Below, piece by piece: positions 18,965 through 41,134 of a DNA stretch of 64,000 nt. The notes beneath the pieces were generated by a model. The model did no database searches. It was not told where the DNA came from and saw nothing but the letters and a program-made list of their open reading frames with translations. The DNA lies in the NCBI RefSeq assembly GCF_002571385.2, contig NW_019217800.1, positions 1,295,854 through 1,359,853 on the forward strand. The letters are read 5' to 3'. The DNA comes from Stylophora pistillata. Lineage: Eukaryota. Positions within the stretch are counted from its first letter, which is position 1. Each line of letters starts with the position of its first letter. The translations under genes and the position numbers were made by a program.

Positions 18965-19666
18965 ATGGATGCAAACTCCAGCGACGGCAGAATTATTGTT
19001 AATATCGCAAAGAAGAAACTAGGCGGAGTGGGTTTTGTGACGAGCAAGCGAAGCGAAAGTCCTTACCTCGTTGTGTCACACGTCGTTAAGGGAGGAGTAG
19101 CTCACGAGACGGGTTTGATACAAACTGGGGACGTCATTCTTGAATTGAATGGGAAGTCTCTGGAGAGCCTGCCCTACCATAGGGCGCTAGAGATTATCGA
19201 CAAAGTCCCCACCGGGGAGGTGATGGCGATCAAACTACGTGCCCAGGACGGATTTCAAGCGTATCTAGAAACGGTCTTTGACGACCAAGGTGCTGTAAAG
19301 ACGGTGCGAAAAACCAGGCCACAAACGCCAAAAACTCCAAAAGCTAACAAGAACGTTAACGGAGAGTTAAATGGTGAATCACATTCCGGTCAACCGCAGA
19401 CCACGCAAGTGGAGCCAGTTTCTACCATTGAAGAAGACACAGGAAAAGAGCCCCACGATGACAACGAACCTGAAGCGCCAACGTCTCAAAATATTACCAA
19501 CGGACATCCAGACAACGAACGTGAAATAGTCAAAGAGTCACCAGAATCCAAAGGATGCCCAGTCACCAACATTTTATCAAAACCGCAAAATCCAAAATAT
19601 GTCAGGTTACAGAATCTCCTCGATGGCAAGTACACGACAGACACACTACATCAAATGGCCATGATA
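18965..19666 (+). CDS. NOS: NOS exon 1 (coding): PDZ domain, beta-finger and linker
   Basis: Acceptor ttttccag ends 18918; in-frame TGA upstream of AAAATGG; GGVGF carboxylate loop, LETVF beta-finger, TDTLH; donor ATA|gtaagt. Confidence 0.95.
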
Positions 19667-22600: not shown

Positions 22601-25600
22601 TTTAATGATAGTAAAAGATAAAGGAGAACAATTTTTGGTAACGTTGATTGTGCTGTCTGAGTCGACAGTTTTTAAACAAACACGAACTTAATTTTACTGG
22701 AGCTTAGACCGTCAAAGTAAATTTCAGTTCTATTCAAACTTCTTCACTGCTGAGCTATTGGAATGATTAAAGGCTGATAGTTTCGAAAGAAACTGTTTGG
22801 GGCTGCGTCGGTGGGAATAACGAAATAATTTGGATATATCAACAAAATTGAAATGGTAAATTGGCCACCGTAACGATTACAAAAGCTGACGTTTCGAGCG
22901 TTAGCCCCTCGTCGGGGCGAAGGGCTAACGCTCGAAACGTCAGCTTTTGTAATCGTTACGGTGGCCAATTTACCATTTCAACTTTGTTGATATATCCAAA
23001 TTATATTGGAATGATTGCTTCGTGTTTATGTCCTTTCGTTTTTACAAGAAGTCTTTTCATTTGTTATAGGTATTTGACGCTCGACATGTGAATACACCCT
23101 CCGAAATGTTCGAGGCTATTTGTAAGCACATAAAGTACGGAACAAACAAGGGAAATATCAGGTGATTATGAAATATTTACGTTGTATTTAAGTATTTTTG
23201 TTGGTTCTATAAGTGTTTTCAATATCATAATTATCAGTAAAAAGAAAAAGAAATATTTAGGCTTTTCACTATTCAATAGCTTATTTGTCTCTGATCTATC
23301 ACCAGAACGTACATAACCGCACGCATCAACTTGCCACCAGATTGTCATATTGTTTGTGATTAGAGAGAGTTATATTGCGCCTTTCATTCAGAGCAGGGGA
23401 ACTGTATTGCTAACCAGTTTCGAGTCAACAAGCAGTGATCTGATGTTTTGGACAGAAAATTAATGAATTTATAGATGTTGGCCTCTATCCAACCTCCAAT
23501 TCTCATGACATAATTCTAATTTCGCTGCCGCTCTTTCATACACCAAAATGCGTAGCAGTAAGTGCGCTGGAATCCAGGGCCCGGTTGTTCGAACGGTTGG
23601 ATAACGCTATCCACTGGATAAATCTCTCTCCTTTGGAAAGCGTTATATGCGCTTTGAACAATTGGGCCTAGACCGAGAAATTCGGGTTTCGAGTCTTAGC
23701 TGGGTCATTGTGCCCTCTTCATTTTTGTTTTGCTTCTCTCCACCCGGGAATATAAATGAGAACATGTAAACTCTTGGGGAAAATTTGAAATAACTATTTT
23801 GAAGTGACCAGTGGGTAATCATTTTGCTAATCATTTGAATTTGTCTTGTTTTGTCGTTGCATCTCTTGATCTAAGGTCCACGATAACGGTTTTTCCTCAA
23901 AGGAAGACTTCTTTCAAAGACTTCCGCGTGTGGAATACACAGCTGATTCGTTATGCTGGATATAAAAAACCCGACGGTTCGTGCATTGGAGATCCTTCAA
24001 ACATTGAGTTCACGGAGGTAAAAATGGATTTGGCTCCGACAAACTTGCATCAGTTCCAACAAATGCAAAACTAGTTTGGGTTTTGCTCTTTCGATTTCCT
24101 TTGAGTCTTCTGTGCTTGTCAGCTGTGATTTGACGGTTCTAGTTACTTGTGTTTTGTTTTTAAGACAGTATGTTTTCAACAGATTTGTCAGACCCTTGGC
24201 TGGGAAGGAAAGGGAGGTCCTTTTGATGTTTTGCCTTTGATTCTTCAAGCTAACGGTGGAGAACCCGAAATGTTCGAGATTCCGCCTGAAATCGTACTCG
24301 AAGTGGAAATAAAGCACCCAAAGTAAGTCTCAGACACAATCGATTGTAATGGCAGATATTTTTAATAATTGCTGTTTGTTAATAGCACAAGGAAGTCAGG
24401 GGGAAATTTTCTGTGTCTGAAGAATAATCTTCCAATGTCACCATAAGTAACCGCGGATCCTTACATGTCTTGCTGCCTAGCTAATCAACGATGTATTTTC
24501 CTTGACACCATTAAGTGACGCATCTGTTTTTTTTTTTTTTATGAAGACTTGTCACATAATTCTGGAGAAAATTTGTCAGTATCAACGACAAAGATACTGG
24601 CCGAGGAAATTCTGAGTGGTTGAAGAGAAATTCCTCTCTAACATGAATTACTCGGCCTGTCAGTTTTTTTTCAAAGTTTTATGGCCAGCCATTTTCACTT
24701 GTCAAGAGTAACTGCTAAGAAAACTTTTGATGTTCCAGAATTAACTCGTCTTCATTCGTAATCACCTTCAGTGGTCAATACATTTAAAACGAATTCTGTG
24801 TGAACCTTCCCCTTTTCGCGACCCTGCCTGACCCTCCCCCAGAAGTGATCAATTTGTAACTTTTCCTTACCATATGATCGTCTCTGCCAAGGTATCCGTG
24901 GTTTGAAGAGCTGGGATTGAAATGGTATGCGCTTCCCGCAGTCTCTTGTCTTTGTCTTGATGTCGGAGGAGTAGAAATACCTGCATGTCCCTTTAATGGC
25001 TGGTAAGAAACAGAATACTATATGAGTAATTCTAAACCAAACACGAAAAAAGAACCAAATAAAGTCTGGCTTAAATTTTTGATTAAAAAAAAAAAAAAAT
25101 TGGTTTTCGTTTACCGGAATGTAAATAACACTGGACAGTTGTATTAAAAAGCGCTAGGTCATTTTATCGCTGTCTGTATCCATTTTCATAGGTACATGGT
25201 TACAGAAATTGGAGCACGAGATTTCGGTGATACAAACCGATACAATATGCTTAAGGTAGGTTACCCACGAAGAGAGGTAACAGAGACCATAATATAAGAA
25301 TTGAAAACACTCACCAAATATATCATTTATGTAACACTTGTGATACAAATTAAATTTTCATATGAAAAGTTTTATTTCTATTCTGTTCTTAACTCACTTT
25401 AAAGAGTTTTTAGTTTTGCTTTTTGTCTTCTCCCGCTCTCTTCCAAAGCCCGTAGCGCTGCGTATGGGTCTGGACACTAAGAGTAATGCTTCTCTCTGGA
25501 AGGATCTCGCTTTGGTGGAACTTAATCTGGCAGTGATGCACAGCTTCCAGGTTTGTCTGGACGATAACTCTTTCCACTTTAGCCAGTTACCACTCAAGTG

Positions 25601-28060
25601 GCTATGAGTGTTTTACTATTAGAAAATCGTACGAGTTTGAATACGTTTTGATTTAAGGAATGTTCATGTCTCCATTATTTCAGAGGGTCTAAAATTACAC
25701 AGCGTAACAAATGCATGAGCTGTTTGTTGTATAAATGTTCTCGTCAGATTAAGTTAAACGAGTAACTTTTCCACAATTTCGTTATTTCTCTTCAAGGAAG
25801 CTGGAGTTACAATGACTGATCACCACAGCGCTTCCGAATCTTTCTTAAAGCACCTTGAGAATGAGGTTCGTGGTCAGTTTGTTTGTTTGTAAACTGAAAG
25901 CTTAATTAATATTTATACCACTGAGGGTTCCCCTTGGTTAGGAACATTTGGGGGGCAAAGAAAATGGTTTAAGACATCGAGGGCCAGAGTTATCCTAGGT
26001 AAGTTCACACTTCAGAGATTTCAAACTAGGGGGATCTTGCACCGACCCAATATTAGTTGGAAGAATACCAAATCTATTTTAGTTGTCATCAATCATAAAT
26101 TCTCCTTGACAGAGAGGGGTAACATTCATCTTGAGATAATCTAACCTTCCTTTTAGCTACGGGGCTCTGTCGCAAGTTGAAAGAAAGAATAAATTGTGAC
26201 AAACCAATATCGATGTCTCTGAATTACCTTCAAGATCACACTATTCGCCAAAAATAGTATCTTGACTTTGAAGGTGGCATTGACCATCTTACTTAAACTG
26301 ACACAGGTAAAACTTCGTGGAGGCTGCCCGGGAGACTGGGTGTGGATTGTACCTCCCATCTCAGGCAGTGCTACGCAGGTGTTTCATCAGGTTAGTTCAT
26401 TCTAAAGTAACCATTTGACCAGTCGAGAGAGCTTAAAAATGATATCTCTAGTTTAGGATGCAAAGGGATCCAGATTGCGTGCCAAAACGTGCATGAGTGG
26501 GGTCCTGTATCCTCGGGGGCTTTGAATATTGCACCCCAAATTTCAGTTCATTTTATTTCCATCTCTGCTGTCCACGGTACCCCCTTGGTACTCCTGACGA
26601 TAATTGACGTTCCTTTCGTCTACAGGAAATGTTAAATTACACTTTGAAACCAAGCTACGAATACCAGGTTAGTCATATTAACTTAAAATCGAAATCTCTT
26701 ACGCGCACTTAGATATCATGTGTATTAAATGTAAATTTGGAATGAACGGATCGACCAATATGGCGTCCCATTAGTCAGATGTTTTAAAAGTTTTAGTGTA
26801 TTTCTCAGACTTTTCTCAATTATTAAATGTTCCCCGCCTCATGATGATTTCAAAGAAACTATTATGTTATGAAAAATGATGCTCAACTCTCTCAACTGGC
26901 ACATCTCTGTGAAGCTCATGATACTCTTTTCCAAGAATGAGATTTCCTAACCTAGGTTTTTCTTTTGTTTGCTTACGCCTCAAGATTGATGATAATTATT
27001 GTTGTGTATTCCAGGACGATCCTTGGAAACACTATTCAATAAAGAAAGACACGTCTAGCGATTCTCCAAGGAAGAAAGCTTCCTTTAAGGAAGTAGCAAA
27101 GTAAGTTGAACGTACATGATTCATCGGCGCAAACGAGTAGAACGTACACAGTTCTTGCCATGAACCTGATGACAAGAACTATGTTAAAGAGTCCTTTCTT
27201 GCGGTAGTTCACTACTGCTCTCAGTTAATGTTCGTGAAAAAGTCCTCACAACGTTTCTTTTGATGAATATGTAATGTGAAACACTATGTGAGGGTAAAGT
27301 CACATAGCATGTCACAGCAGGCAAACAGGTCTGATCAAAGTGTAGAGTCCTTTGTAAAAGGAGAGAAAGAGGAAGAGGAATCAGGTAAAGCTTTTACTTA
27401 CGCCTCTGTTCCACCTGGAATTATCTAAGTGAAGACCACGGTTCTCCAGAATATGGTAGTTTCTGTTGTTAGAATCAGATATTTCTTATTGTTTTCTCAC
27501 TAATGAGATGAACTAACTCATAGCTGTAACTACATTTTTGCAAGAGATCTATAATTATACAGCTTCATCTTTCAACTTCGAGAACCGTTGATGTTGTTCA
27601 CAATTGATCAGCATTCTACATTGACTTGGGCTGGTTAAGGTCTATTCCAGCCAATGCTTTCATTTCAGTGTCATCCTTCGATGAACAGGAGGGTTACATT
27701 TTTAGCACTGAAATCTATGCTTACCTCCTTTTTAGGGCAGTTAAATTTTCTGCTAAACTATTTAGCAAAGCTTTGGCTAAAAGACAGAAGGCCGTCATCC
27801 TTTATGCAACAGAAACAGGAAAATCAGAGCGTTACGCCAAGATGCTCGGAGAACTCTTCTCTCATGCGTTTGATCCGAAGGTTAGGAAAGTTTGATTTTG
27901 AGATAATGTATGCCGACGAGGAATGTGAGACTTAAGTCGCTCACAGAATGCTTAACTTAGTTACTTGAAAAGTTAGAGGTTTCATCGTATTTCAATCATG
28001 CTTGTCGAGTTTGTAAATTGTCATAGTGAACGAGCGCTTTTAGAGAAATAATTATTATTA

Positions 28061-28097
<37 letters not shown>

Positions 28098-28113
28098 GCT
28101 TGTTATTGGTTTG

Positions 28114-28145
<32 letters not shown>

Positions 28146-28196
28146 TATAATATCAGTACTTTGTAACATCCGGTTTCTTCTTACAAAATAAAGTTT

Positions 28197-28229
<33 letters not shown>

Positions 28230-28297
28230 TTTTTTTAATTAAACATCTATTCCATCGCGCTTGTTGGATATGAGATGATTATAACCAACTCGGCGCT

Positions 28298-28347
<50 letters not shown>

Positions 28348-31300
28348 ATAATTGTTAAATACCGTTTTACTATATGTATTTCACAGGTTGTTTGTATGCA
28401 GGACTACGCCCATCCTGAGATGGAGAATGAACAGCTTGTCCTAATTGTAACTAGCACGTTTGGAAACGGAGACCCTCCTGAGAACGGAGATGTAAGCCAA
28501 AGTTGAAGTGCCATTCTCTCACACTTTACAAACATTGTGGACTTATTAGCATTGACACATAGAATATTCTCTATAAGTACTCCCCCCCTTATCGCTATCT
28601 TGAACTAGATGAGATGTAAGTGAGGCCTATTCATTCTACCTTACCACTTATAGGGATATCATGACCCTCACAACAAACTTTTCAAATTAGGGGGCATGCA
28701 AACCTTTGTAACCTCTACATCACCCAGTAGCCAGTACCCAATGATCCGGATTTTTGCTGAAATGTGCATCTATGTTTTCTCCCCAGGAATTCGCTCGTTA
28801 CTTGTACGAACTCCGCCATCCACCAGATGGGTAAGTTAAATCTTATTACGTTCAACTATTTTTCCTTGATTACCTTCAAAAGGCAAACATCCTGATGCAC
28901 GCTAAGCAGAGAACAGACGGTGGCACAGCCCTAGAAGCTAGTTCAATGTTTACTTTTTCTTTAATCAACAATTATGTTTCGTCCTAAACAAACTTTCAAA
29001 AGCCTCTCCTTACAGTTCTTATTGTTATTATTATCATTATTGTTATTTGTAGTATTATCATTATTATTACTGTTATTTCGCTCAAAAACTAATAGTTAGA
29101 TAAATGATGCAGATTATTTTTAATTTTATTTCCTCGATGGTACATGTCTTTTAGAAGTCGATCGTCGCGCAACATGATGAAACAACTCGGCAGCCTGTTG
29201 ATTCAAAAAGAGAAGGAAAAAAGAATTGATTTAATGAACAACAGTCAACCACTTGCTAACCTCAGGTAATCATACATAAAAAGAGACACAATCAGAAATT
29301 CCTATACTAGTAATTGTTTTAAATCATATATTAGACGAACCACGTTTAGTGGATCTAGCTCCTAACTAAAGAGCCAGTGTAATCGAAATGTTTAGAATTC
29401 GAACCAGCTTTGAACAAAATCAAATACAGACAACATTAAGCGACAGGGGTGCAAATGAAATAGAAGTGTATGGAGGTCCAAGATTGGAGTTTTTCTCCTT
29501 CACGAACAAAGACCCCATAGTTCGATTTGCACGATTGGTTGCTTTTTGTTCGATCTGGCTCATTGAAATCATCTTTTACGACATGTTTGTTTTATCGAAT
29601 GTTATTTTATGTGACGGAAGAGAAAAGTGGCTTCTTTATAATGCGCAGACTATGATGACATACCTATTTTTTAACCTTAAAGGTACTCTGTGTTTGGCCT
29701 GGGCTCCAGGGCTTACCCAAACTTCTGTGCATTTGCGCGTTCGCTTGATAAGATCATCCGGGAACTTGGAGGAGAGCCCGTGTTGAAGATGGGAGAAGGG
29801 GACGAGTTGTGTGGTCAAGAGGAGTCGTTCAAATTGTGGGCCAAAGACGTATTTAAGGTAAACAATAACGCTTACTGAACAGTAGCATTACTGGCTCGCA
29901 CGCACGTTAAGTGTTAACTTACTGGTAGACTCACCCTGACAGCTGCTTTATTCTTCTCAGAACGAGCTAAAAACTATTAAGAAACGAATTTAGATAAGGT
30001 TACTAAAGAACTTAATCACGGACATTTTTTAGACGTGAACGGCAGCTGGGCGTTGAGTGTCCTTGGGTTTTCCTATTGACTGTCGATGGTTAAAATGCTC
30101 CAAAAGCAGTTGTCTTCAACTGCCGGTCAATTCATCTTCTCTAATGGTCCTTAGATGTTAAATTCCTCACTATTACTCAGTGCATCAATCTTTGAATCCT
30201 CAGGCCGCTTGGGACTCATTCTGTATCAGTGACGAAATAACAAACGAAGCCAGTCAATCTCTGGACACAGTGCCAAGTGGCTGGGTACCAGGCCGCTTTC
30301 GGCTTGCGAATGTTATGATCTCCGCCGTGAATGCTTTCACTGAAGCGGTTGATGGACCGGACGGACACAATGAAATTATCCGAGGTAAGAAATGTGTTCA
30401 GCGGCCATTTTATTTTCATAAATTATTAGCTTAGCTTCTCATTATAAAGACGAAGTATACTTCAAACACAATGTAATATTTTCATCGCTATTAATTTCAG
30501 GTGTGTTGGACAATTGTGACACTAAATACGTTTCCAGAAATAAGGAAAATTATGAGGGGTTTGAAAAATATACTTCTTCTTTAATTAACCCTTGAACTCT
30601 CAAGATCTGAGGGAAATTCTCCTCTCTAGCTGCTACGCATTTTCATTTTAAATCAGTTACGAGAATTTGGTGTTAGATCGAGATAACATCTCCTGCCGGA
30701 TAAGTTTGAGCATTTTCACTACCTGTTTGCTGGATAACTTACGGATATTATGGGCAAAAGTTACGTGTGAATCACTTCTGGGAGTGTAAGGGTTAACAGA
30801 TTTTTGAAATAGCCACAGATGATTATTCAGCGATATTTATAGTTGCAATTTGACTCAAATACTTGCCAAGGACAAGAGACTGCAATCGCGCACAAAGTAG
30901 ACCAAATTCCAAGTTTATGATATATGATATTTAAATAATCTGTCACTTTTCTTGCCATCCAATATTTGTTTGATCTCTGCTTGTCTGTGTAGGTTTGACT
31001 CATATTTGTGGAAAAGCAGTGCGATCTGCGACGTTATTATCAGTTAAGAATTTACAGTGTCCTGAATCCAGGTCAGTGAATGAGTAAAGAAGTTTTTTTC
31101 TACCTTTTTGATTCGCAAGAATCTCCTTTTTGCGTCCTGAAAAGTCAAACAAAATAAGTATTAAAACCCTATATATATATATATACGCCTATAGCCCGAG
31201 CAAGGGTATGTCCACAGCTTTAACTGTGGGGCTGCACCTATGATGACGACACTGCCTGGCGCATGGGAAGCGTCCCTTGGCAAGGTACTCTGTTGATCGA

Positions 31301-34300
31301 TGACACAGCAAAGCTGAGATGATCGCAGAGAAGATCGTTGCATAACACCCACCCATCCCACCCCAGGGGAGGACATCCACCACACATTAATCTTGTACGT
31401 GGGAAATTAACGTCTCCTACCCCTAACCCTGCAGGAGACGGGGCCTACGGTGTACTCGTCCTTATCCTAGAAGACTAAAATATCTATCCATTTCTTGGTA
31501 TTATAGAAAGGTAGCGAATTCTCCTCAGTTATTTTAAGGCGATGAGTATTGGTCCGACCGGGGCTCGAACCCTCGACCTCGCGCACAACACAATCCCCGT
31601 ATTACAAACGCTTTGAGGGGGTAGTTGTTGTGCCAAAGGGTGGTGATAAGGCTTGAAATGGAGATCGTCACTAATGTATGTGCTTCATTCAGTTACACTG
31701 AGTTAGCAGAAAAAATGTCATGGCGAATATCCTCATACTCACCGCAAGTTCGTCGTTTTCCGTCGTCTGATTGTTAAGTGGAATCATCGTGATTCCACGA
31801 TTATGTGTGATTCCACGATTATGTATGATTCCACGATGATGTGTGATTCCACGATGACGTATTAGGAGTTGAGTGGTGTATAAACCCTAACAATTTTAAG
31901 TCATATGTGTGAAACAATGAAGAGATTCTACTGAAGTTAGGTATGGTCTGTTCGAAGCTCCTGATGGCAGTAAACTGACTCGAAAATTATAGGGGAAAGC
32001 AAAAAAACATAAGCAAGAAGAGAACACAAAATGAAACACAAATAAGTTACATGCGTTATATTCGGAATGAAATGAAGATATAATGTAATTGTTTGCGTGA
32101 CAGAACTGAATAATTTATTTATTTACGTCAGAAGACCTATTTCGTTATGAAATGTGTCAGAAAACAGATACTAATTACCCATGACGTAACCGTCAAATCT
32201 CATTGCCACTATAGTAAAAAATATTTTGATTGTTTCCTTGCCGACAAGGTTATAGATATTGGGTTGCTGTCTGACCGTACGTCATGGAGTGGGTAATTGA
32301 TGTCGGTACGAGATTCAAAAGGCCAGGGTGGCAAAAGAATCTGCCTATAATAAAGGAAGATCTAGTCTGAATGTACAACCAAATAATTTAATAGCGTTAC
32401 ATTGTAAACTAAAAAGGTTTTGGCAAGAATTGTGGGTCGTTTCTGTGTAAAACGATGAAAATTGGTAATAGGTAAAGATCTCGTGAGGCTTCGCATTTAC
32501 GTCACCATCGTTCACTAGGTCTTCGCCAAACAGACTAATTTCACCTAAGGGAGGTCTGGTGCGATTATATGACCAAAAAATTTGGCCGAGAAATTAAGCA
32601 GTGTAGCCTAAAAATTCGTGGTAACAAATGTAGAAAGTTACTGTGTCAAACCTTTTTCAATTTGATCCACAAAGAAATAATTTGATAGGCTTCACATTTA
32701 CGTTGTTCCTGTTGACTCTCGGAATACCAAACACCTTTGATGTCATCCAATTAAAATATTAAAATGCATCCAAATTAACAATTCTCAATTTTTCCAACTC
32801 ATAAGAGTTTTCTAGTTGCTCCCTGAAATTTCAAAGAATATGAGCCGAAAAACCCGCACTCAAACGATGATGGAGTTATGTGAGGCTTTCCAAAAAAGAG
32901 ATCGATGCCTTTCTTCAGAAGGTACTGGTGTTAGGTCATCGAAACTGCCCAAAGGGGTTGTCACTCAGACTTCGTTGCACAAAATTGAAGACTGAAACAT
33001 CGAAGTTTCCCTGTTACACTTCGTTCCCCAAGATTCAAGAAACACCAATAGTTTCTTGTGCTACGCTGTCAACGAAGTGTGGAGAACCACCGCTGGTTGC
33101 TAACTCCTCTTCTCAGAATATAGAAGGGGAGCAGAAGGAGGCCTGTTGACTTGCATTCAAAACTCTCAAGATAAATACACTTCGTTTGCCTGCAATCGAT
33201 GAACGGCGAGTGAGAGAGCTCAGTGGTAGTTTGGTTCAAGATCAGTGTCCTGTCAGAGATAAACAGGTTGAAGTCCCCCGCCGAAAAACAACACAGCGTC
33301 AAATCTCTCGAATCAAACATCCACAAGATCAACAAAAAAAGAGTCGAGAAGAGGTAGTGGTAGCTAAGCCGGTGTCAGTACGTGGGAATGTTACTGTCGA
33401 AGGTCCGAGGAGAAGAAGGTCTCCAGCAGTCCAGAATGAAAGAAAGATCTCCAAGCCTACCTTAGTATGTCAAACGCGAGTAGCAGTTAAAGTGTCCAAG
33501 CGTGAAGGGGGACAAGGTGGTCGTGGTACGATCAACAAAAAGTTCACACCTGGAGAACACGAACTTTGGATGCCACGAGCCTGGGTGAGTATCTATACAA
33601 CCTGGATCAATAAAGAAAAAACAGAGCGTTGAGGGACAGCAGATCACGAAACAGCAGCAGAATTTGACCGAAAACCAAATGCGACCCGAAAGTAGAAGAG
33701 CTGCGCCTTTGGTTCAAGTTTTGTGCATGCGCAGAGTTGGTCGTCAGGTTGTGACTGGTAATATGAAGATCACTGATAGAAGGAATGGACTCTGCGCCCA
33801 GACAAACCCTAGTCAAGAACACTTGACGTTTCTACGTGTTTTACGGAAACGATTCTAAATTAGCACTGGGGTTTTCCGTTATCAACTGCAAAATTTTCTT
33901 TTTTTTATGCTCAAAAATACCGTTGTATATATATTGTAATTTTCGATCGATTGACCATCGTAATCCGGAACAAGGTTGATTTTGGTTTACTCTGTCTTAA
34001 GCAATCACACTCGGTCAATTTTCCTACCCTTCAGCCTTTTGATAGGTTAAAACTGGTGTTTACCTTCTTTCTGATCAACTGTTGTGGCTATTTGGTTTTT
34101 TTATTTTCGACCTTCGATTGATAGCCGCTTTAAAGAGCTAGTCGTTGTCCTAAAAGGGTCGTGAACAGGCTTAAAATGGAGTTCGCCATTGGGATATATG
34201 CTTTGCTCAGCCATTCTTCTAGGAAGATTTCGTCTCGAATATTTTCATATATAGTCAGCGCAAGTTGTTCGATTTATGTAGTTTAAATATTTAGTGTGAG

Positions 34301-37300
34301 TACTCCTCAGTGATGTATCATAAGATTTGACTGGTGTATAAACCGTTAGAGCTTTGAATCGTATTTATGCAAGAATAAAAATGATTCTACCAGGGTTCGA
34401 AGCTCTCAACAAGTGTCTCCCAATAATTAAGAGCGGGCTGACAAAAAAAATTTAAATCTTGTGGGTCATGACCTCCCTCAAAAGCATGACTGTCTGAAAG
34501 CAACAAGCTAACCAGTCATGGAATTTGGAAAAATGCTGTAAAGTTCAAGATCATAAATTCCTTAAAACCTACTAAAAGCAATCAGTGTTGTTCCCTTCCA
34601 AATTAAAATATTATAACGATGCCCAAAGATTGCTGTTGTCAGTTCTCTTCGGGAGCAACCACACAGGGAGACGAAATATCTTGAATAATGGCTGACAATC
34701 AGACAAATTATGACTCTATACCTTTTTACTTCTTTTAGTCGCTCGACCATCTCAGTCCAGCTCAAAACAGAGAACAGCACAGAATTGCAGTACAAACCAG
34801 GGGATCACGTGGCCATCTTTCCCGCTAATCGCCCAGAGCTGGTACAAGCTTTGATTGACGGGCTATCAGATGACGTCGATCCTGATAAGCCAATCGCTGT
34901 TGAGGCCTTACGAGAAGTCAAAGGTGAATGCAAGTTCAGTTAAAAGTAGTAAGATATTTTCAGTGACCAGTCAGTACGTCTTCTGGATGAGATACTAGCC
35001 AACCCAAAACCTTCCACAAGAATTTCGTCCAGTTTCCACGACAGTTCGCCGGCCCCCGTCCTTACTCCTGGTTAGAAAGAGGCATTGAGAGGATGTAGTA
35101 TCTTGCTTAGAACACACTACAAATTACATAGTGCAAACGAGTAAGGTTACAAAAGGTAACAATTTCATTACGATTATTACCTTAGGTATTCTAAAAACAG
35201 CCAAGAAATGGGAAGTTTTCACCCGTCTTCCTTCACAAATTACACTGCGTCAAGCTCTCTCGCGTTACCTAGACGTTACGAGTGTTCCTTCACCACAGAT
35301 CCTGAAAGCTTTGTCTGCTACGGTAAACTCTCAACTTATTATAGTGATCCAGAATTCCTCCACAGTTCATTCGTAGAATAACTGACTCCTCTTGCTACAG
35401 CTATTACCTGTGCTTTTTGCTGTAGTTCCTTCTTACCTCACTGACACTCAACTTCAAGTTGAAACAGCTGAATGAATCCTTCTACAGCGGCGGTGTGTTC
35501 CTTGTCGTTTGCGTTCAAGGGCAAGGCTATCTAATGCATTTGCAGTACATTGAGCCCCGAATATCTCGAACTTTCCTGTAACTCGGCGGCGTACCCAGGT
35601 TGGGATGAGTGTCATTGTGTCACTGTTAATTTCGTTGGGTTGTCTGTGGGATCCCAGTGTCTCAAACCAGTCTTGTTTGTACCTCGTTCATTGATAATAT
35701 CTCATTTCCACTTCTTTGTTTGCCTGTACTTCTGACCTACACTGAACTGAGACATTTCCATTTTAAAATTATTTTAAAATGTCTACACTTGTTTAGGCTA
35801 CTGACCCAGCAGAAAAGGAAAAACTTGAAATTCTTAGCCAGGTGAGGTGTTGGTAATTTTTTTATTTTTAAGTTAAATCATACAATAAAAAAAACTCCGT
35901 CTTTCGCTCGTTTACATTTGTATATGTCCTTCTAAGTTCTCAACTTAAGTCTTCCTCTACAACACTTTGGTATTTTTTTCATTTCTTTTTCTCTCAGGGT
36001 AATAACCGATACGAGGACTGGAAGTTTGAAAGTGAATGTAACATTCTTGACGTGCTACAAGAGTATCCCTCCTTACAAGTTCCAGCTGACTTATTACTCA
36101 CTCAGTTGCCTTTGTTGCAGCCGGTAAGTCACACTGCTTGCTAGGTCAGCAAGCAGTTATACTGAATCATTCAACTTTTTACGGTGCAACCGCCCCTCTC
36201 CCCTCCCCCCCCCAAAAAAATTGTTGGGATCATAGGAATTGTGTAGAGGGAGTGAAGTCCGAGTTTTAAAACCCGTCTCAATGGGACTGAGATAAGACGT
36301 AAAGTTTGTTTTTACTCCACGTGAAACTCCGTTACGCGTTACGAGCCCACTCAAAGAGCAAAGATCTCCAAAACAATTCTTGTAAGTCCAGCGTGTCTAC
36401 CTCACTCAAAGCTATGACAAACGCTACTTGGAGACTTTTTTAATCTCCTCTCACAAATTACTACGATCTTTGTCAGAATAATTTCTTTGTTATCAACAGC
36501 GTTTCTACTCCATCTCATCATCGCCAGACTTTTTCCCAGGTGAAGTTCACCTGACGGTGGCAGTGGTACAGTATAAGAAGAGAGGTAAGATATTTGAGTT
36601 TGAAGTATCGAGAAATCACAGTTTTAATGCACTTGATTCATTGTCAATGAAGGTGATAGATTGATAGATGTGAAACATTGTCCAAGTATTACAACACAAT
36701 ACGAGAGAGCGTGTTTAATTGGAGATTCTTCTCTGGACAATAGAGGCCAAGTTGTGCTTTTCACGAGCGCTTCGGAAGTGATTACGAAGTTCTTTTCGTC
36801 TCCGTGCGGCCGAAGAGACATAATCTCGCGTCAAGAGTTTAATTTCCCAGCATTTTCCGGCACATTGGCAAAAATAAAGTAGTTTTTGGTTCGTTCTGTC
36901 CAGTATATACTAAATAAATATTCCCCTCAGTTGGTGTCATCTCGATATCACACCAAGCACACCAACTATTTGACAGTAAAATGTATAGTTGGTTAAAGGG
37001 AGGATTACAATATGATTCATATATTATGAGTTTAAGGGTTTACTATTGTATTCTTCTGGTGCTGTTTGCAACCTGATATATTTTGCGAATTTCTCTCATG
37101 GAATGTCTTGGTAACTCTGCTGCGTTACGTCTTAGATGGAAAAGGTCCCATACATCATGGCGTTTGCTCCACATGGTTAAACAGTTTGCAACCTGGAGAC
37201 AAAGTGGCTTGCTACGTGCGGCAGTAAGTCATGTCTCAACTTATTTTGCGTTGTGAAACTCAGTGAATTTAAAAACGTTGCTATGTACTGATTATGCGTG

Positions 37301-40300
37301 AAGAAGAATGGCTTTACAGCTCAGAACTTCGCCTCAGGACAGTACACACCTTTACAAATGAAGCAGCAAGAGACCACGTCCGATGTGGATCAGATATGTG
37401 TTAGACATTTGAATGTGTGCAAATCTGAGCACTTTTTTAAAATGTTTGAAAAAGAAATTTTTTATCTTTGATTAGCAAACATAATGAGGAGCGAAGTCCC
37501 CTTTCACCAGGTTACTTATTTCCTTTGTCGTAGAGCCCAAACCTTTCATTTGCCCGAGGATGGATCGGTCCCAGTAATAATGGTTGGGCCTGGGACTGGT
37601 ATAGCTCCATTCAGAAGCTTTTGGCAACAGCGCCAGTTTGACGTCGTGAACACAAGTGCTCCCAAGCCAAGGACGATGGACGTCACTCCGGACTCAAGCC
37701 CTCTGATACAGCGTCGAAACTTTAACTCCCCGGAAACGACTCCTCATACACGACATCGTTCCGTCGGCGGAAGCCCCTCTTTACAGCGCCAACTCTTTTC
37801 AGAAAAAGAACAAAACGAGAACGCTTCAAACCCTTCGTCAGGAAAGTGGGGTGAAATGTTGCTGTTTTTCGGATGTAGAAACGCTACTCAGGATTATATC
37901 TACAAGGATGAAATGGCGGAAGCGAAAAACGATGGCGCGTTGACTGAAGTATGGACAGCTCTCTCACGTGAACCAGGACAGCCAAAGGTAAGCAAATATT
38001 TTTTAGAGGCAAATTATCCTTTAGCTCCTCAACAAATGCGAACACAACAAAGTAAGTTCAAGTTAGCCTTGCTGCATTTCCATTTTTAATAGTGAGGAAA
38101 ATGAAAGAATGTCAAAACAGCTGCTGTTTCTTTCTTCTAAGTGGTACATACACTTGGCATTTTACCGTTGACAATAAAGTAACTTCGAAGTAGACCAGTG
38201 GCTGTTTTCTCTAATATGTATATCTTTAAAACGTTTACGTCACCTCTTCAAATTTGCAGGCTACTTTTTTATCCAAACGATAGATAGATAGAGAGATAGA
38301 TAGATAGATAGACGTTTATTAAGAATACCTTAATAGCAGCTGGAAGCTGAGTTGCAAAGCTGTACAAATTATGTAATAGAACTATACAATAAAATCAAAC
38401 CTAAAAGGGAACTAATTTATATATACAATTATCATAAATGTCAGTTAAAATGTCTTGCGCTTACTGGAATGAAAGTATCTCTGAACCGATTTGTTTTAAA
38501 GGAAACTCTAAATGGTCTGCGTCGTCGTAACTACATAAGTTGATCTCGGTTATCGAAAGGCAGTAAGTGGTACAAACAAGCCAAGGGATTGGAGACGATC
38601 TTGTTAGAGAATTTTAAGCAAAGGTCTTCTCTCCGATCCCTAAGGGTTATGAACAATTTTATCTTACATAGCCAATCTCATTTCGTACATATTTCAGAAA
38701 TATGTTCAGGATATGTTGAAAATGGAGGCGTTTGACATTTGTGACAAGCTGCTGAGTCAGCGAGGACATTTCTACGTGTGCGGCGATGTTTCAATGGCTG
38801 AGGATGTTTGTAGAACACTGCAGGTAATCCCGTCACTATAGTAAAGTTTACTTGCACTGCGCGCGTAATCGAAGTGCTCGTAAATAGGACTGTGCCTGCC
38901 AGTTCTGAACACAAATTTTCCTGAGTGAAAATTTCAGCAAAGGCGTGGGTTGCGAATGAAGAGGTTGCTTTTCTTATCCTACACTATTAATATAGAGAAT
39001 ATCAAATTACCATGGCGACGGTCAGATTCTATAGTGTAGGTACTGTGAAGCGAGTGCGCGCCTATTCTATCTCTTGTTGCAATCCACCTGGTGGTATTCG
39101 CTTCTAATCAAACGTTCCTCTGTCAAAGGAAAACTCAGTAACTTTGAAAGTTTATTGGACACAAATAACGCATCTGCGAGGTTATCGGGGGAGGATTTAA
39201 GCTTCTAAGAACGGGTAAATATTATGCGATCTGATCATCAGATAATTTCGCTTTGTTTATTGTTTTTAACCTCCTCAGACCCTCTTACAAGAATACGCCG
39301 CCATGTCTCAGCAGGAAGCTCAGGACACAGTAAACAAAATGAAGGTAAGGTGTGCATGTTGTATTCTTTGGGAGCACGATGTGCCATGCGGACAACTTAC
39401 AATTGAGGGGAGTGCACACCTGAAAAATATGTTACGCTCCTTTGGGTTTGGTTTACTCTAATCGCATGAAGGTATTGGAATTCCTTGTGTTCCCCAGTTT
39501 TGAGCCCCCTCTCAAAAATTAGAAAAAATGCGAAGTTACTGTTCCAGCAAAGCGGGACTTTTTGTAAAAAGTTATTGTGATAATATGTCAAGTGCATTCT
39601 CATCCTCCGCCGGTGGCTAACGCAAAAGAAAATCTTGTAGACCTGTTAAATTTTATGTATCGGTGTGCATGCTGCAAAATAGAAAAAAATAACAGAAACG
39701 AAAACTTTTGCCGTTACTTTAAGGAATTCAGTCGCTTACATAATTTAGTAAGATCAATATTCTATCTGTCAGCCGATGTTTTTGGTCTTGTCGCGCAAAA
39801 GCCCGCTCCCTCAGAGAACGGCAGCAAGAGAATCAAACAATCAAACATAGAAGATTCTTGTTTATCTTTTTCAGAGTTCCGGCCGATATCATGAGGATAT
39901 TTTTGGAGTAACTTTGAAAACACGAGAAGTGACTGACCGCGTCCGAACCGCAGCTAAAAGGTTGGTTAGTAGAATGATAGCTAAGGAAGTAAACTGGTTA
40001 AAAAACTCAACGGATTTAATTTGACATTGGTTCTCGTCAGTTTTTTTGGAGTTTGCTGTAAAGAGTTTACAAAAGTTTTACAACCAACTGACCAATACAG
40101 ACTTTCCATGAATACAAAAGACTGCAGCGCCGTTGTTCCCATCTTTAAATTTAAAAGCCATCCTCCTTAAACCAACATTCCCTTCCTGTTCGACGATTAA
40201 ACAAACAAACGCCTGTTTAGACAATTCTCGTCTTTTTTTCACTGACAAGGCTACTTAAGATTCACGGTTGTTCTGTACTCTTTCGACAGATCTTGGATGT

Positions 40301-41134
40301 ATCTAAGGACTTCTAGTAAAATGAGGGTGAGTAATAAGTTGTGCTTTAAATACCCATTAGAGTGACTAGCATCTAATTTCTCCTTACAATATCACCGCTG
40401 AATCAATCATTAGAGTCACGAGAATAAAGAAAATGGTCACCAACTAAAGAAGCTCTTGATTGTTAAACAAATTCTAAGGCTTTAAAGCGCTTTGAGGAGT
40501 AGGTTATGTATGAATTTTGAAATGTCTTTTAACTTTAGATAAGTCAGCACAATTTGAAGCCGCGCGCGCCTACTATTACCTTGCCCGTGGACAGAGATGA
40601 AGCAGAAGGCACAGCAGTGTGAGTACGTCAGTCGGTAAAACTGCAAATCATACACGTACGTACACTCATTCTTCCTCGTACATTATAGACTTTGTTGTCT
40701 GTTTGTTGTAACCGCACGAACGTGAGGATTTCTCCAGAAGAGGGGTAACAATTGCGCGCTCTGCTCCATGTTCTTCCGTGCATGCATGATACAATAATAT
40801 GCCTGTAGATATTTACCACGCACTCTTATGTCTTTCTCACATGCAACGGTTATAACTGGCTCAAAACAAGAAGACAACTTTAAATCCTCGTCATACGTAG
40901 TTGTGAACTAAACCGTCAAGTACTAATCGAAAACCGGTACTTCAATTCAATTTAGTTACTAGCTGTGGCTGGCACCCACTAAAACGTTCTTGGCACTATA
41001 TTACAGATCTCGCTCGGTATCTTTGGGATTTGTTTGAAAAATAGAATCGTGTACCTCCGTTCTACACCATATACATTTTTTTTTTCAGTCAAGACTCCAC
41101 AAGAGGAAGAACTTATTCAACTCCAATGCAATAG
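18965..41134 (+). CDS. NOS: Nitric oxide synthase, PDZ-containing nNOS(NOS1)-like, 33 coding exons, ~1451 aa
   Basis: join(18965-19666,21043-21200,21872-22034,23070-23161,23876-24017,24183-24322,24892-25002,25192-25255,25449-25550,25797-25865,26307-26390,26626-26667,27015-27100,27736-27880,28387-28491,28787-28830,29155-29265,29683-29857,30204-30384,30993-31071,34739-34923,35186-35322,35797-35841,35998-36123,36500-36584,37136-37223,37534-37987,38698-38823,39279-39344,39875-39960,40290-40326,40539-40618,41089-41134). All introns are GT-AG and phases are consistent. Hallmark motifs: [92 protein letters not shown]. The last three exons are less certain. Confidence 0.95.
20565..21015 (-). mobile_element. 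5'-truncated Penelope-like retroelement (GIY-YIG C-terminus and pLTR with hammerhead motif) in NOS intron 1
   Basis: Minus-strand ...[28 protein letters not shown]...GINERFSFH*; 9-bp direct repeat ccaacagca at 20556-20564 and 21016-21024. Confidence 0.85.
20690..20730 (-). ncRNA. Minimal type I hammerhead-ribozyme motif of the Penelope pLTR (variant core)
   Basis: Minus strand GCU-CCGACGA-AGGCCUAACGCUC-GAAAC-GUC-AGC, with palindromic ACGU stem III. Confidence 0.6.
21043..21200 (+). CDS. NOS: NOS exon 2: Zn-tetrathiolate CxxxxC ([11 protein letters not shown]) and AKDFLQQYY
   Basis: ttttcag acceptor, CT|gtgagt donor. Confidence 0.95.
21872..22034 (+). CDS. NOS: NOS exon 3: heme-ligating Cys ([18 protein letters not shown])
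   Basis: poly-T cag acceptor, CAA|gtacgt donor, 163 nt. Confidence 0.96.
22067..22268. mobile_element. piggyBac-like MITE (CCCTT...AAGGG), degenerate; related partial copy at ~40350-40475
   Basis: Terminal ccctttaatcccca / agggtgtaaaggg; body shared with 40350-40475. Confidence 0.6.
22366..22550. repeat. ~27-bp tandem repeat, ~7 copies (gattttggccactagtggccgattttg-like)
   Basis: Direct inspection. Confidence 0.85.
22769..23003. mobile_element. Penelope pLTR fold-back (inverted duplication) with 13-bp TSD in NOS intron 3
   Basis: Same sequence as 20576-20723; inverted arms 22826-22913 and 22916-23003; TSD tattggaatgatt at 22756-22768 and 23004-23016. Confidence 0.85.
23070..23161 (+). CDS. 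NOS: NOS exon 4 ([31 protein letters not shown])
   Basis: atag acceptor, AG|gtgatt donor, 92 nt. Confidence 0.95.
23577..23669. mobile_element. Short MITE with GGCCCRGTTGTTC-type terminal inverted repeats
   Basis: gggcccggttgttcgaa ... tttgaacaattgggcc. Confidence 0.6.
23876..24017 (+). CDS. NOS: NOS exon 5 (STITVFPQR...[14 protein letters not shown]...[11 protein letters not shown])
   Basis: Conserved oxygenase motifs, 142 nt. Confidence 0.95.
24183..24322 (+). CDS. NOS: NOS exon 6 (ICQTLGW...[12 protein letters not shown]...EIKHPK)
   Basis: acag acceptor, AA|gtaagt donor, 140 nt. Confidence 0.95.
24892..25002 (+). CDS. NOS: NOS exon 7 ([18 protein letters not shown]...PACPFNGW)
   Basis: Conserved motif, TG|gtaaga donor. 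Confidence 0.95.
25192..25255 (+). CDS. NOS: NOS exon 8 ([21 protein letters not shown]), contains the substrate-binding Glu
   Basis: catag acceptor, AAG|gtaggt donor. Confidence 0.95.
25449..25550 (+). CDS. NOS: NOS exon 9 ([34 protein letters not shown])
   Basis: Conserved SLWKD motif, 102 nt. Confidence 0.95.
25797..25865 (+). CDS. NOS: NOS exon 10 ([23 protein letters not shown])
   Basis: Conserved DHH motif. Confidence 0.93.
26307..26390 (+). CDS. NOS: NOS exon 11 ([28 protein letters not shown]), BH4-binding
   Basis: acag acceptor, CAG|gttagt donor. Confidence 0.95.
26626..26667 (+). CDS. NOS: NOS exon 12 ([14 protein letters not shown])
   Basis: tacag acceptor, CAG|gttagt donor. 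Confidence 0.93.
27015..27100 (+). CDS. NOS: NOS exon 13 (DDPWKH...[11 protein letters not shown]), start of CaM-binding helix
   Basis: ccag acceptor, AA|gtaagt donor. Confidence 0.93.
27736..27880 (+). CDS. NOS: NOS exon 14 (AVKFSAKLF...[11 protein letters not shown]...HAFDPK), CaM helix and FMN phosphate loop
   Basis: Flavodoxin motif, 145 nt. Confidence 0.96.
28061..28358 (-). mobile_element. Palindromic non-autonomous element (same family as the 57264-57954 array) in NOS intron 14
   Basis: Reverse complement of the 297-bp unit; palindrome ggatatgagatgat...atcatctcatatcc. Confidence 0.75.
28387..28491 (+). CDS. NOS: NOS exon 15 (VVCMQDY...[17 protein letters not shown])
   Basis: FMN motif, 105 nt. 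Confidence 0.96.
28787..28830 (+). CDS. NOS: NOS exon 16 ([15 protein letters not shown])
   Basis: ccccag acceptor, GG|gtaagt donor; aligns to nNOS FGCALMEMRHP. Confidence 0.9.
29155..29265 (+). CDS. NOS: NOS exon 17: autoinhibitory-insert region ending PLANLR
   Basis: TAGAAG (NAGNAG) acceptor, AG|gtaatc donor; PLANLR matches nNOS PLANVR. Confidence 0.9.
29683..29857 (+). CDS. NOS: NOS exon 18 ([17 protein letters not shown]...[13 protein letters not shown])
   Basis: FMN motif, 175 nt. Confidence 0.96.
30204..30384 (+). CDS. NOS: NOS exon 19 (AAWDSFCI...WVPGRFRL...NEIIR), FMN-FAD hinge
   Basis: cctcag acceptor, G|gtaaga donor. Confidence 0.92.
30589..30792. mobile_element. piggyBac-like MITE with TTAA target duplication
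   Basis: TTAA 30585-30588 and 30793-30796; TIRs cccttgaactctcaaga / tctgggagtgtaaggg. Confidence 0.8.
30993..31071 (+). CDS. NOS: NOS exon 20 ([25 protein letters not shown])
   Basis: NLQ motif, 79 nt. Confidence 0.92.
31170..31600 (-). mobile_element. tRNA-derived SINE-like element in NOS intron 20
   Basis: Minus strand B-box ggttcgagccc, conserved-looking core ttaaaataactgaggagaa...ggataaggacga...cgtaggccccgtctc, (TA)n tail. Confidence 0.55.
31789..31857. repeat. 18-bp tandem repeat x4 (gtgattccacgattatgt)
   Basis: Direct inspection. Confidence 0.9.
32840..33858 (+). pseudogene. Nested intronless decayed gene of unknown family inside NOS intron 20
   Basis: ATG 32840 to TAA 33858 reconstructs to ~338 codons with two +1 frameshifts (~32981-32984 A-run; ~33590) and one internal TGA (33147-33149). 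Confidence 0.55.
34739..34923 (+). CDS. NOS: NOS exon 21 (RSTISVQL...[15 protein letters not shown])
   Basis: FAD-domain motif YxPGDH. Confidence 0.95.
35186..35322 (+). CDS. NOS: NOS exon 22 ([27 protein letters not shown])
   Basis: Connecting-domain motif. Confidence 0.94.
35797..35841 (+). CDS. NOS: NOS exon 23 ([15 protein letters not shown])
   Basis: tttag acceptor, CAG|gtgagg donor. Confidence 0.9.
35998..36123 (+). CDS. NOS: NOS exon 24 (GNNRYEDWK...[11 protein letters not shown])
   Basis: Conserved motif, CCG|gtaagt donor. Confidence 0.95.
36500..36584 (+). CDS. NOS: NOS exon 25 ([25 protein letters not shown]), FAD-binding
   Basis: RxYSISSS motif. Confidence 0.96.
37136..37223 (+). 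CDS. NOS: NOS exon 26 ([16 protein letters not shown]...VACYVR)
   Basis: GVCSTWL motif, 88 nt. Confidence 0.96.
37534..37987 (+). CDS. NOS: NOS exon 27: NADPH-binding ([12 protein letters not shown]...FFGCR...[10 protein letters not shown]) with large S/P-rich insert
   Basis: 454-nt open exon, AAG|gtaagc donor. Confidence 0.93.
38281..38530 (-). mobile_element. LINE (L2-like) 3' tail fragment with (CTAT)n microsatellite
   Basis: (gata)n at 38281-38311, AATAAA on the minus strand, residual [12 protein letters not shown]. Confidence 0.55.
38698..38823 (+). CDS. NOS: NOS exon 28 (KYVQD...[15 protein letters not shown])
   Basis: NADPH adenine-binding motifs. Confidence 0.96.
39279..39344 (+). 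CDS. NOS: NOS exon 29 ([22 protein letters not shown])
   Basis: ctcag acceptor, AAG|gtaagg donor. Confidence 0.92.
39875..39960 (+). CDS. NOS: NOS exon 30 ([28 protein letters not shown])
   Basis: RYHEDIFG motif, AG|gttggt donor. Confidence 0.94.
40290..40326 (+). CDS. NOS: NOS putative exon 31 ([12 protein letters not shown])
   Basis: ctttcgacag acceptor, AGG|gtgagt donor, phase fits. Confidence 0.7.
40539..40618 (+). CDS. NOS: NOS putative exon 32 ([27 protein letters not shown])
   Basis: ctttag acceptor; GT|gtgagt donor overlaps an in-frame TGA (40620-40622). Confidence 0.65.
41089..41134 (+). CDS. NOS: NOS putative terminal exon ([14 protein letters not shown])
   Basis: T10-cag acceptor, phase-2 fit, TAG 41132-41134. 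Confidence 0.6.

Follow-up and report, generated by a model that had tools for sequence, protein, structure and literature searches.

A long loop in the NADPH-binding domain of a coral nitric oxide synthase is retained in the transcripts examined and carries tandem candidate phosphorylation motifs

Here, we analysed a 64,000-nucleotide stretch of the Stylophora pistillata genome (assembly GCF_002571385.2, contig NW_019217800.1, positions 1,295,854 to 1,359,853 of the forward strand; hereafter the window), which carries a complete PDZ-containing nitric oxide synthase (NOS) gene with an unusually long loop in its NADPH-binding domain. Most of this loop is encoded by a 186-nucleotide segment that begins with GT and ends with AG, and an initial annotation of the window had read the segment as an ancestral intron that became coding and is possibly still spliced out in some transcripts, i.e. 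an exitron. We found ordinary coding sequence instead: all transcripts examined retain the segment. The idea of an ancestral intron turned into an optional part of an exon does not hold up, and the fallback offered by the same annotation, constitutive retention, is the one that read-through in seven informative RNA runs bears out. Judging from the sequences compared, the loop likely grew by duplication of a 14-codon unit of the form [ST]P-x-x-[ST]P followed by basic residues.

Between the QRQFD and MLLFFGCR stretches the loop has 71 residues, against 10 in rat neuronal NOS (nNOS; 1F20, 1TLL and 8T1J), a net excess of 61. In the exon, 122 nt precede the GT at 37656, the AG ends at 37841 and 146 nt remain 3' of it; both sites are in phase 1, and the 62 codons in between are in frame and stop-free. 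Removal of the segment would leave 9 loop residues, close to the canonical length of 10. These measurements, together with the three S/T-P plus basic units recognised in the loop, agree with the initial annotation of the exon. We consider the GT/AG pair itself a modest coincidence only: 5% of codons contain a phase-1 GT, and in 39% of cases a phase-1 AG falls within 5 codons, so that the chance of such a pair at a site named in advance is about 2%. The donor-site GT forms bases 2 and 3 of a Ser/Cys codon, a codon also present in the intronless short-loop paralog.

Eight of the 24 listed RNA runs were examined, of which seven were informative (X24, X1, X11, X14, X2, X5 and X18), while X10 contributed unspliced pieces over 37760-38232 and was uninformative. 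X24 was analysed as raw reads, about 2% of its data being read and junctions being listed from 3 reads upwards, and the other runs as contigs. A junction from 37655 to 37842, as skipping of the segment would produce, was found in none of the eight runs. The complete junction tables of X24, X1, X11 and X14 around the exon contain the two flanking introns only; for X2, X5 and X18 the evidence consists of unbroken pieces, with no skip among the junctions listed (27 further junctions were unlisted). The interval 37534-37985 is crossed in one contig piece in X1, X14, X2, X5 and X18, in X11 the exon is covered by two overlapping pieces that break near a variant at 37768, and in X24 the raw-read depth over the segment is continuous at 3-7, with no internal junction at the listing threshold. 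A related spliced, cDNA-type locus (L011) also retains its loop. Because every informative run reads through, constitutive splicing, and with it an ordinary, always-spliced intron, is ruled out. The data also speak against major skipping, but their power is low where the skip fraction is 50% or less.

Could a minority of transcripts, tissues or stress states lose the 186 nt by splicing and so yield a short-loop isoform? Exitrons are defined by junction reads inside a coding exon in the accessible part of Marquez et al. (2015; PMC4484396), and the coral segment resembles those described there in its in-frame, stop-free GT..AG span within a long coding exon, its weak sites, its encoding of disorder and short motifs, and the presence of an intron at this place in other lineages. 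Several further observations weigh against full retention and in favour of such an event: a skip fraction of 25% would be missed 71% of the time at the raw-read depth of X24, contigs drop rare variants, the GT is kept in six of eight long-loop relatives (always within a Cys codon) and the AG in five, and one relative, L020, has a strong acceptor-like site (9.8) one codon downstream, though no donor.

Optional splicing nevertheless seems to us very improbable, because the skip junction is absent from all eight runs and the splice sites are weak and not conserved. With a splice-site matrix built from the 31 introns of the window gene only, the donor at 37656 reaches 2.05. None of the 31 real donors scores as low (their minimum is 4.44), but 17% of 214 exonic GTs match the value, which agrees with the weak donor noted in the initial annotation. 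The acceptor at 37841 scores 2.07, above 2 of the 31 real acceptors and matched by 32 of 259 exonic AGs. Donor scores of the orthologues range from -1.4 to -5.4, the AG is lost in L011, and L019 and L020 are without the GT. Finally, the GC content of the insert (53%) exceeds the exon mean of the gene (47%) and that of its introns (38%, maximum 44%), whereas Arabidopsis exitrons, in the available text of PMC4484396, lie below their exons.

Table 1. Positions of the NOS gene, the NADPH-domain loop and related features in the window
Feature	Position	Strand	Details
PDZ-containing NOS gene, complete	18965..40622	+	32 coding exons, 1437-amino-acid model; all 31 introns GT-AG
First coding exon, with PDZ domain	18965..19666	+	Pfam PF00595, E 2.7e-12
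Insert of about 30 amino acids at the FMN-domain autoinhibitory position	28787..29265	+	Two exons, 28787-28830 and 29155-29265
True upstream intron, 310 nt, GT..AG	37224..37533	+	RNA junction 37223-37534: 6 raw reads of X24 and contigs of 6 other runs
Single exon, 454 nt	37534..37987	+	Spans two vertebrate-type NADPH-domain exons plus the loop; one open frame
71-residue loop in the NADPH-binding domain, linking the helix that follows the GPGTG motif to the next strand	37643..37855	+	Predicted disordered
Proposed exitron, GT..AG, 186 nt, GC 53%	37656..37841	+	Sequence present, splicing not observed
Repeat unit 1, T-P-x-x-S-P plus basic cluster	37679..37723	+	T at 37685 and S at 37697; conserved motif
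Repeat unit 2, S-P-x-x-T-P plus basic cluster	37724..37765	+	Likely duplicate of unit 1
Degenerate unit 3, S-P-S-L-x-R-x-hydrophobic-F	37766..37798	+	Kept in orthologues
True downstream intron, 710 nt, GT..AG	37988..38697	+	RNA junction: 9 raw reads of X24 and contigs of 6 other runs

Is the segment, then, an old intron that became part of the exon? The vertebrate phase-1 intron named in the initial annotation does exist at this position: in the fish-like genomic loci L045 and L047 the frame breaks at a predicted intron, in phase 1, whose offset from the IAPF anchor (55 nt) is that of the window GT. We examined 60 of 80 metagenome loci for an intron at the loop, introns here and in L045 and L047 being predicted from frame breaks, not from RNA. 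Thirty-eight loci are continuous, 13 have a predicted intron (12 in phase 1 at offsets 52-67, one in phase 0) and 9 are truncated or unresolved. The intron-bearing loci that can be placed are closest to fish or mollusc NOS; L039 and L054-L060 are without firm placement. Within L039-L060 the phase-1 loop intron lies at offset 52, 55, 61, 64 or 67 depending on the animal, and these offsets track loop length; other loci, such as L035, L049, L051 and L052, lack a loop intron.

All 19 genomic coral-like loci that cover the site are continuous (L012-L020, L023-L031 and L033), with loops 9 to 71 residues longer than in nNOS, although several of them are near-identical and represent fewer independent cases. 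An exonised intron would be expected to persist as an intron in relatives or paralogs that lack the insert; instead, ten short-loop coral-like loci are intronless at the loop, the second NOS of the same genome (contig C393; loop +9 relative to nNOS) has the same outer exon borders and no intron, and the Acropora-like and Actinia-like genomic open reading frames P0163, P0166 and P0170 read through, P0170 with a loop of only +3. Low GC, neutral evolution and the lack of a coding history would be expected as well, and the insert shows a GC of 0.53, a ratio of nonsynonymous to synonymous substitution (dN/dS) of 0.1-0.6 and a duplication in units of codons. What does agree with an exonised intron is the matching position and phase in L045 and L047. 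A recently exonised ancestral intron is thus not supported, coral and anemone NOS being intronless here at any loop length and the insert bearing the marks of tandem duplication and purifying selection on protein. In the common ancestor of corals and anemones the site likely had no intron even before expansion of the loop, because the coral and anemone loci lack the intron whatever their loop length.

An older event is conceivable, in which an early-animal intron at the vertebrate position became coding in the cnidarian ancestor and then shrank or expanded. The exact match of the window GT to the fish-like offset of 55 and the 12 predicted phase-1 loop introns among the 60 loci are in line with it, and members of the short-loop family carry a phase-1 GT, followed 24 nt later in most of their loci by an AG of the same phase, a span too short to splice that could be a vestige. 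The same GT and AG are equally explained by Cys and Thr/Ser-Gly codons. We hold this ancient exonisation to be scarcely probable, since no phase-1 intron occurs here in any cnidarian-like or sponge-like genomic record examined: the sponge-like open reading frames P0192, P0207 and P0215 read through, as do the loci L021/L022, and in sponge-like L042 the donor is in phase 0 and lies 41 nt further on (the automatic 'genomic' label of L032 and the acceptor called for L042 were unreliable and not used). Moreover, at the codon equivalent to the donor, the intronless anemone NOS P0170 and three of the eight long-loop sequences have Pro instead of Ser/Cys, and most of the window insert is explained by recent duplication, its first residues aligning with the short-loop paralog. 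A study of metazoan NOS evolution reportedly maps NOS intron positions and could bear on the age of the intron.

The insert evolves as protein-coding sequence. Its dN/dS is 0.10-0.22 between the window gene and four orthologues and 0.28-0.60 among the orthologues, its length differences are whole codons, and 36 of the 66 sites that vary between the window and L012 are third positions. Fisher p values for the four pairs tested were 2e-6, 0.002, 0.001 and 0.16. Units 1 and 2 are identical at 22 of 42 nt in the window and at 24-31 of 42 in six orthologues, and the self-repeat score was reached by 5 of 500 shuffles for the window and by none of 500 in four orthologues. Only 12 of 10,000 shuffles of the loop contained two copies of [ST]P-x-x-[ST]P, a pattern picked after viewing the sequence, and elsewhere in the 1437-residue model the pattern does not occur.

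Distant coral-like NOS (L019, L020/P0182, P0180, P0181 and P0183) contain one unit at the same distance from the preceding helix, and P0199 contains one further along the loop. The likely path of growth is from a short loop to one unit and then, by tandem duplication, to two or three; the single-unit loop, with 35-55 extra residues in the distant coral-like NOS, appears to have been duplicated in the lineage of the window gene, Desmophyllum and Orbicella. In all eight aligned coral-like sequences, a set selected for long loops, unit 1 lies at the same offset, with its two prolines, its second S and its last R invariant. Over the 28 pairs of these eight rows the mean pairwise identity is 0.77 for the 6-residue core and 0.59 for the 14-residue unit, compared with 0.36 for the linker before it and 0.33 for the remainder of the loop. 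Short linear motifs typically form such a conserved island within a disordered loop. A search with the insert alone returned 1 protein among 41 candidates, and the ESM Atlas gave no usable match; neither outcome is a sign of novelty.

Based on this conserved island, we propose that the loop is a phospho-dependent docking site that controls turnover or location of the enzyme, a reading that we hold to be somewhat better than an even bet. The T-P-x-x-S/T consensus pattern is conserved in a predicted disordered region, in rows whose selection is biased, and it fits dual-phospho degrons and Pin1 sites, in which a GSK3 site is followed four residues later by a proline-directed priming site. Phosphorylation of the second S/T-P by a proline-directed kinase would prime GSK3 for the residue four positions before it. 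With both residues phosphorylated, the unit could then bind a reader, for example a SCF-Fbw7-type ligase or Pin1, and turnover or location of the enzyme would be set, rather than electron transfer gated directly. We do not favour direct gating because the loop presumably sits at the edge away from the NADPH site. The initial annotation had likewise proposed a loop for proline-directed kinases, an idea to which the conservation of the motif across distant coral-like NOS lends weight at the level of sequence.

Several observations speak against a conserved regulatory element. The insert evolves faster than its flanks (dN/dS of 0.28-0.60 against 0.04-0.24 among the orthologues), one of the four Fisher tests is not significant (0.16), and the conservation figures are biased upward, the eight rows having been chosen for long loops and P0180, P0181, P0182 and P0183 stemming from a motif-containing profile. 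Kinase and reader assignments are based on short consensus patterns, which match often by chance in loops rich in S, P and R. The motif is absent from the NOS of Acropora, Nematostella, Actinia and Actinostola and from two octocoral NOS, and it is therefore dispensable in many anthozoans.

The main competing explanation is a tolerated surface expansion of the same duplication origin but without a specific regulatory role, in which selection merely keeps frame, solubility and disorder. The loop takes up unrelated inserts of 1-145 extra residues across animals, close relatives (Acropora and the anemones) do without the motif, the insert is less constrained than its flanks, and it is predicted to be disordered, with no sign of docking in a three-domain model. 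On the other hand, conservation of the 6-residue core is about double that of the neighbouring loop, its distance from the helix stays fixed in sequences of different 50%-identity clusters, and both duplicated units retain the motif. We regard a neutral expansion as rather unlikely, if worth serious consideration.

A third explanation is direct autoinhibition of the kind exerted by the FMN-domain insert or the C-terminal tail, in which the loop would fold back onto the reductase and slow down electron transfer until calmodulin binding or phosphorylation frees it. In the accessible text of PMC11929083 the known NOS control elements are disordered inserts of constitutive, not inducible, isoforms. 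The two coral paralog families show the same split: the long loop belongs to the family with PDZ domain and FMN insert, while in the non-PDZ family the FMN insert is missing and the loop is short (+8, +9). A loop of 70 residues could reach far. Absence from P450 reductase and inducible-type NOS, as known for disordered inserts of this kind, was found for the window loop as well. AlphaFold2 models of the orthologues P0001 and P0003, however, fold the reductase confidently (best match nNOS 1TLL/1F20, E about 1e-36) and leave the loop without secondary structure, with a predicted local distance difference test (pLDDT) score below 50 at residues 257-299 of P0001 and, with the FMN domain present, at 502-561 of P0003. 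The loop is thus predicted to be disordered. Docking on the reductase finds no support in these models, including a three-domain model; models of this kind cannot show phospho-dependent binding. Judged by the general topology of the Rossmann fold, not by coordinates, the loop would sit at an edge that points away from the NADPH site, and it is likely away from the flavin interface. Besides, the enzyme already has an insert at the FMN position and a C-terminal tail of 58 residues. We consider direct autoinhibition highly unlikely. A role of the loop as replacement for a missing FMN autoinhibitory insert was ruled out, an insert of about 30 residues being present there.

Is a long loop at this position restricted to corals? 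In a profile search, 29 of 131 measurable loops were at least 10 residues longer than that of nNOS, a few of these 29 being unspliced introns in gene calls or reductases other than NOS. Demosponge NOS have long loops (Ephydatia +80, Halichondria +98 and, among sponge-like proteins, as many as +145), as do one placozoan NOS (+33) and the Owenia NOS P0252 (+134), so that the helix-to-strand loop of the NOS NADPH domain is a recurrent insertion point. The corresponding long-insert records of sponges, placozoans and Owenia are P0012, P0091, P0098, P0192, P0207, P0224, P0246, P0258, P0252 and P0043, with the loci L021 and L042. The loops of Ephydatia (P0012), Halichondria (P0091) and Owenia (P0252) share with the coral loop their position, their length, a richness in S and R and a conserved putative phospho-motif, but they are unrelated to it in sequence. 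All eight rows chosen as long sponge-like loops have an R-[SA]-x-S-type motif 33-35 residues before the end of the segment, which is unrelated to the coral unit. A common origin of the coral and sponge inserts was ruled out on sequence, and the inserts, going by a quick tree that is not a formal test, likely arose independently. It is a tentative and rather doubtful extension of these data that the helix-to-strand loop is an overlooked regulatory site, short in vertebrates and filled independently in corals (tandem proline-directed dual-phospho motifs), demosponges (a conserved basophilic R-S-x-S-D motif) and an annelid NOS. If so, the nitric oxide output of reef corals, which is linked to bleaching, would stand under stress-kinase/GSK3 control via a tandem phosphodegron.

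How does the loop compare with known control elements? NOS-specific control elements are, in the accessible portions of PMC11929083 and bioRxiv 10.1101/410571, the FMN-domain insert and the C-terminal tail; a hinge-subdomain insertion of mammalian NOS appears there by the title of a reference only. The coral loop resembles these mammalian elements in being a disordered, NOS-specific insert of the reductase that is rich in S/T and R, long in the PDZ paralog and short in the one resembling inducible NOS (same portions of PMC11929083 and 10.1101/410571). It differs from them in its place in the NADPH-binding domain, where the nNOS and fish NOS examined have a 10-residue loop, in having no sequence relation to them, in its tandem [ST]P-x-x-[ST]P units, and in that any effect on electron transfer is putative. 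We regard it as a conserved, constitutive coding loop, a predicted disordered NOS reductase insert at a new site with a probable phospho-motif. With the patterns of GSK3-primed, SCF-Fbw7 and Pin1 dual-phospho T-P-x-x-S motifs the coral unit shares a hydrophobic residue, T-P and then an S/T four residues on that itself precedes P, all within a disordered loop; a conserved basic cluster that follows and the tandem repeat set it apart, and phosphorylation and binding are candidate properties.

A literature search, whose coverage lacks most subscription papers, returned no description of the NADPH-domain loop. Neither do the accessible sections of two papers on basal-animal NOS, PMC7400543 and PMC10073611, mention it: those of Moroz et al. 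(2020; PMC7400543) list 'Stylophora-1' as the PDZ-NOS XP_022808128.1 and discuss the PDZ domain, the FMN insert and the calmodulin site. The available text of PMC10073611 states calcium dependence and control of sponge and cnidarian NOS as unknown and, citing others, implicates nitric oxide in coral bleaching. A conserved, easily deletable loop with a putative phospho-motif would offer a concrete handle on coral NOS regulation.

The gene model was obtained with tblastn searches using Orbicella NOS and was then corrected by RNA junctions. It is 83% identical to the Orbicella protein P0133, which has all five Pfam domains; from the Pfam matches of P0133 and this identity, the window gene has the PDZ, oxygenase, FMN, FAD, NADPH order of metazoan PDZ-NOS. 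In a quick IQ-TREE search (29 rows, midpoint root; not a formal test) the nearest rows were Orbicella, a JGI coral protein and Desmophyllum (99% support), followed by Acropora. Compared by eye with its supplement row in PMC7400543, Stylophora pistillata XP_022808128.1 matches the window model over the roughly 350 visible N-terminal residues, and the length of the entry, 1470 characters including spaces, appears to fit the loop-containing model. The second NOS of this genome, on contig C393, matches 'Stylophora-2' in the accessible part of the same paper. It is without PDZ domain and without FMN insert, with exon borders near-identical to those of the window gene (L002, L007-L010; G000), and its family reads G-N-G-T-G instead of G-P-G-T-G at the start of the NADPH domain.

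The span at the FMN position measures 56 residues in the window gene, 26 in non-PDZ coral NOS and 63 in nNOS. The PDZ-NOS of Orbicella, Acropora, Nematostella and Actinia (span 55-56) likewise have an insert of about 30 residues. This contrasts with the accessible text of PMC7400543, in which the FMN loop is stated to be absent from Nematostella and three coral NOS. The oxygenase-domain exons within 24892-26667 are short (111, 64, 102, 69, 84 and 42 nt). This region presumably has more introns than in vertebrate NOS.

Outside the coding exons, an intronic repeat at 38290-38650 shows high RNA read depth and many variants, which come from copies elsewhere in the genome. Retroelement remnants are a reverse transcriptase fragment (PF00078) at 47452-48318 on the plus strand, adjoining an N gap, and a GIY-YIG endonuclease fragment (PF01541) at 61546-61920 on the minus strand. 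GC-rich tandem arrays with periods of about 172-192 nt occupy 53605-56102, and an exact 297-nt repeat beside an N gap at 57264-57955 is possibly an assembly artefact. Elsewhere in the genome, contig C24 of G000 (L006) carries a diflavin reductase that, by eye, resembles methionine synthase reductase and is encoded by one apparently intronless open frame of 840 residues.

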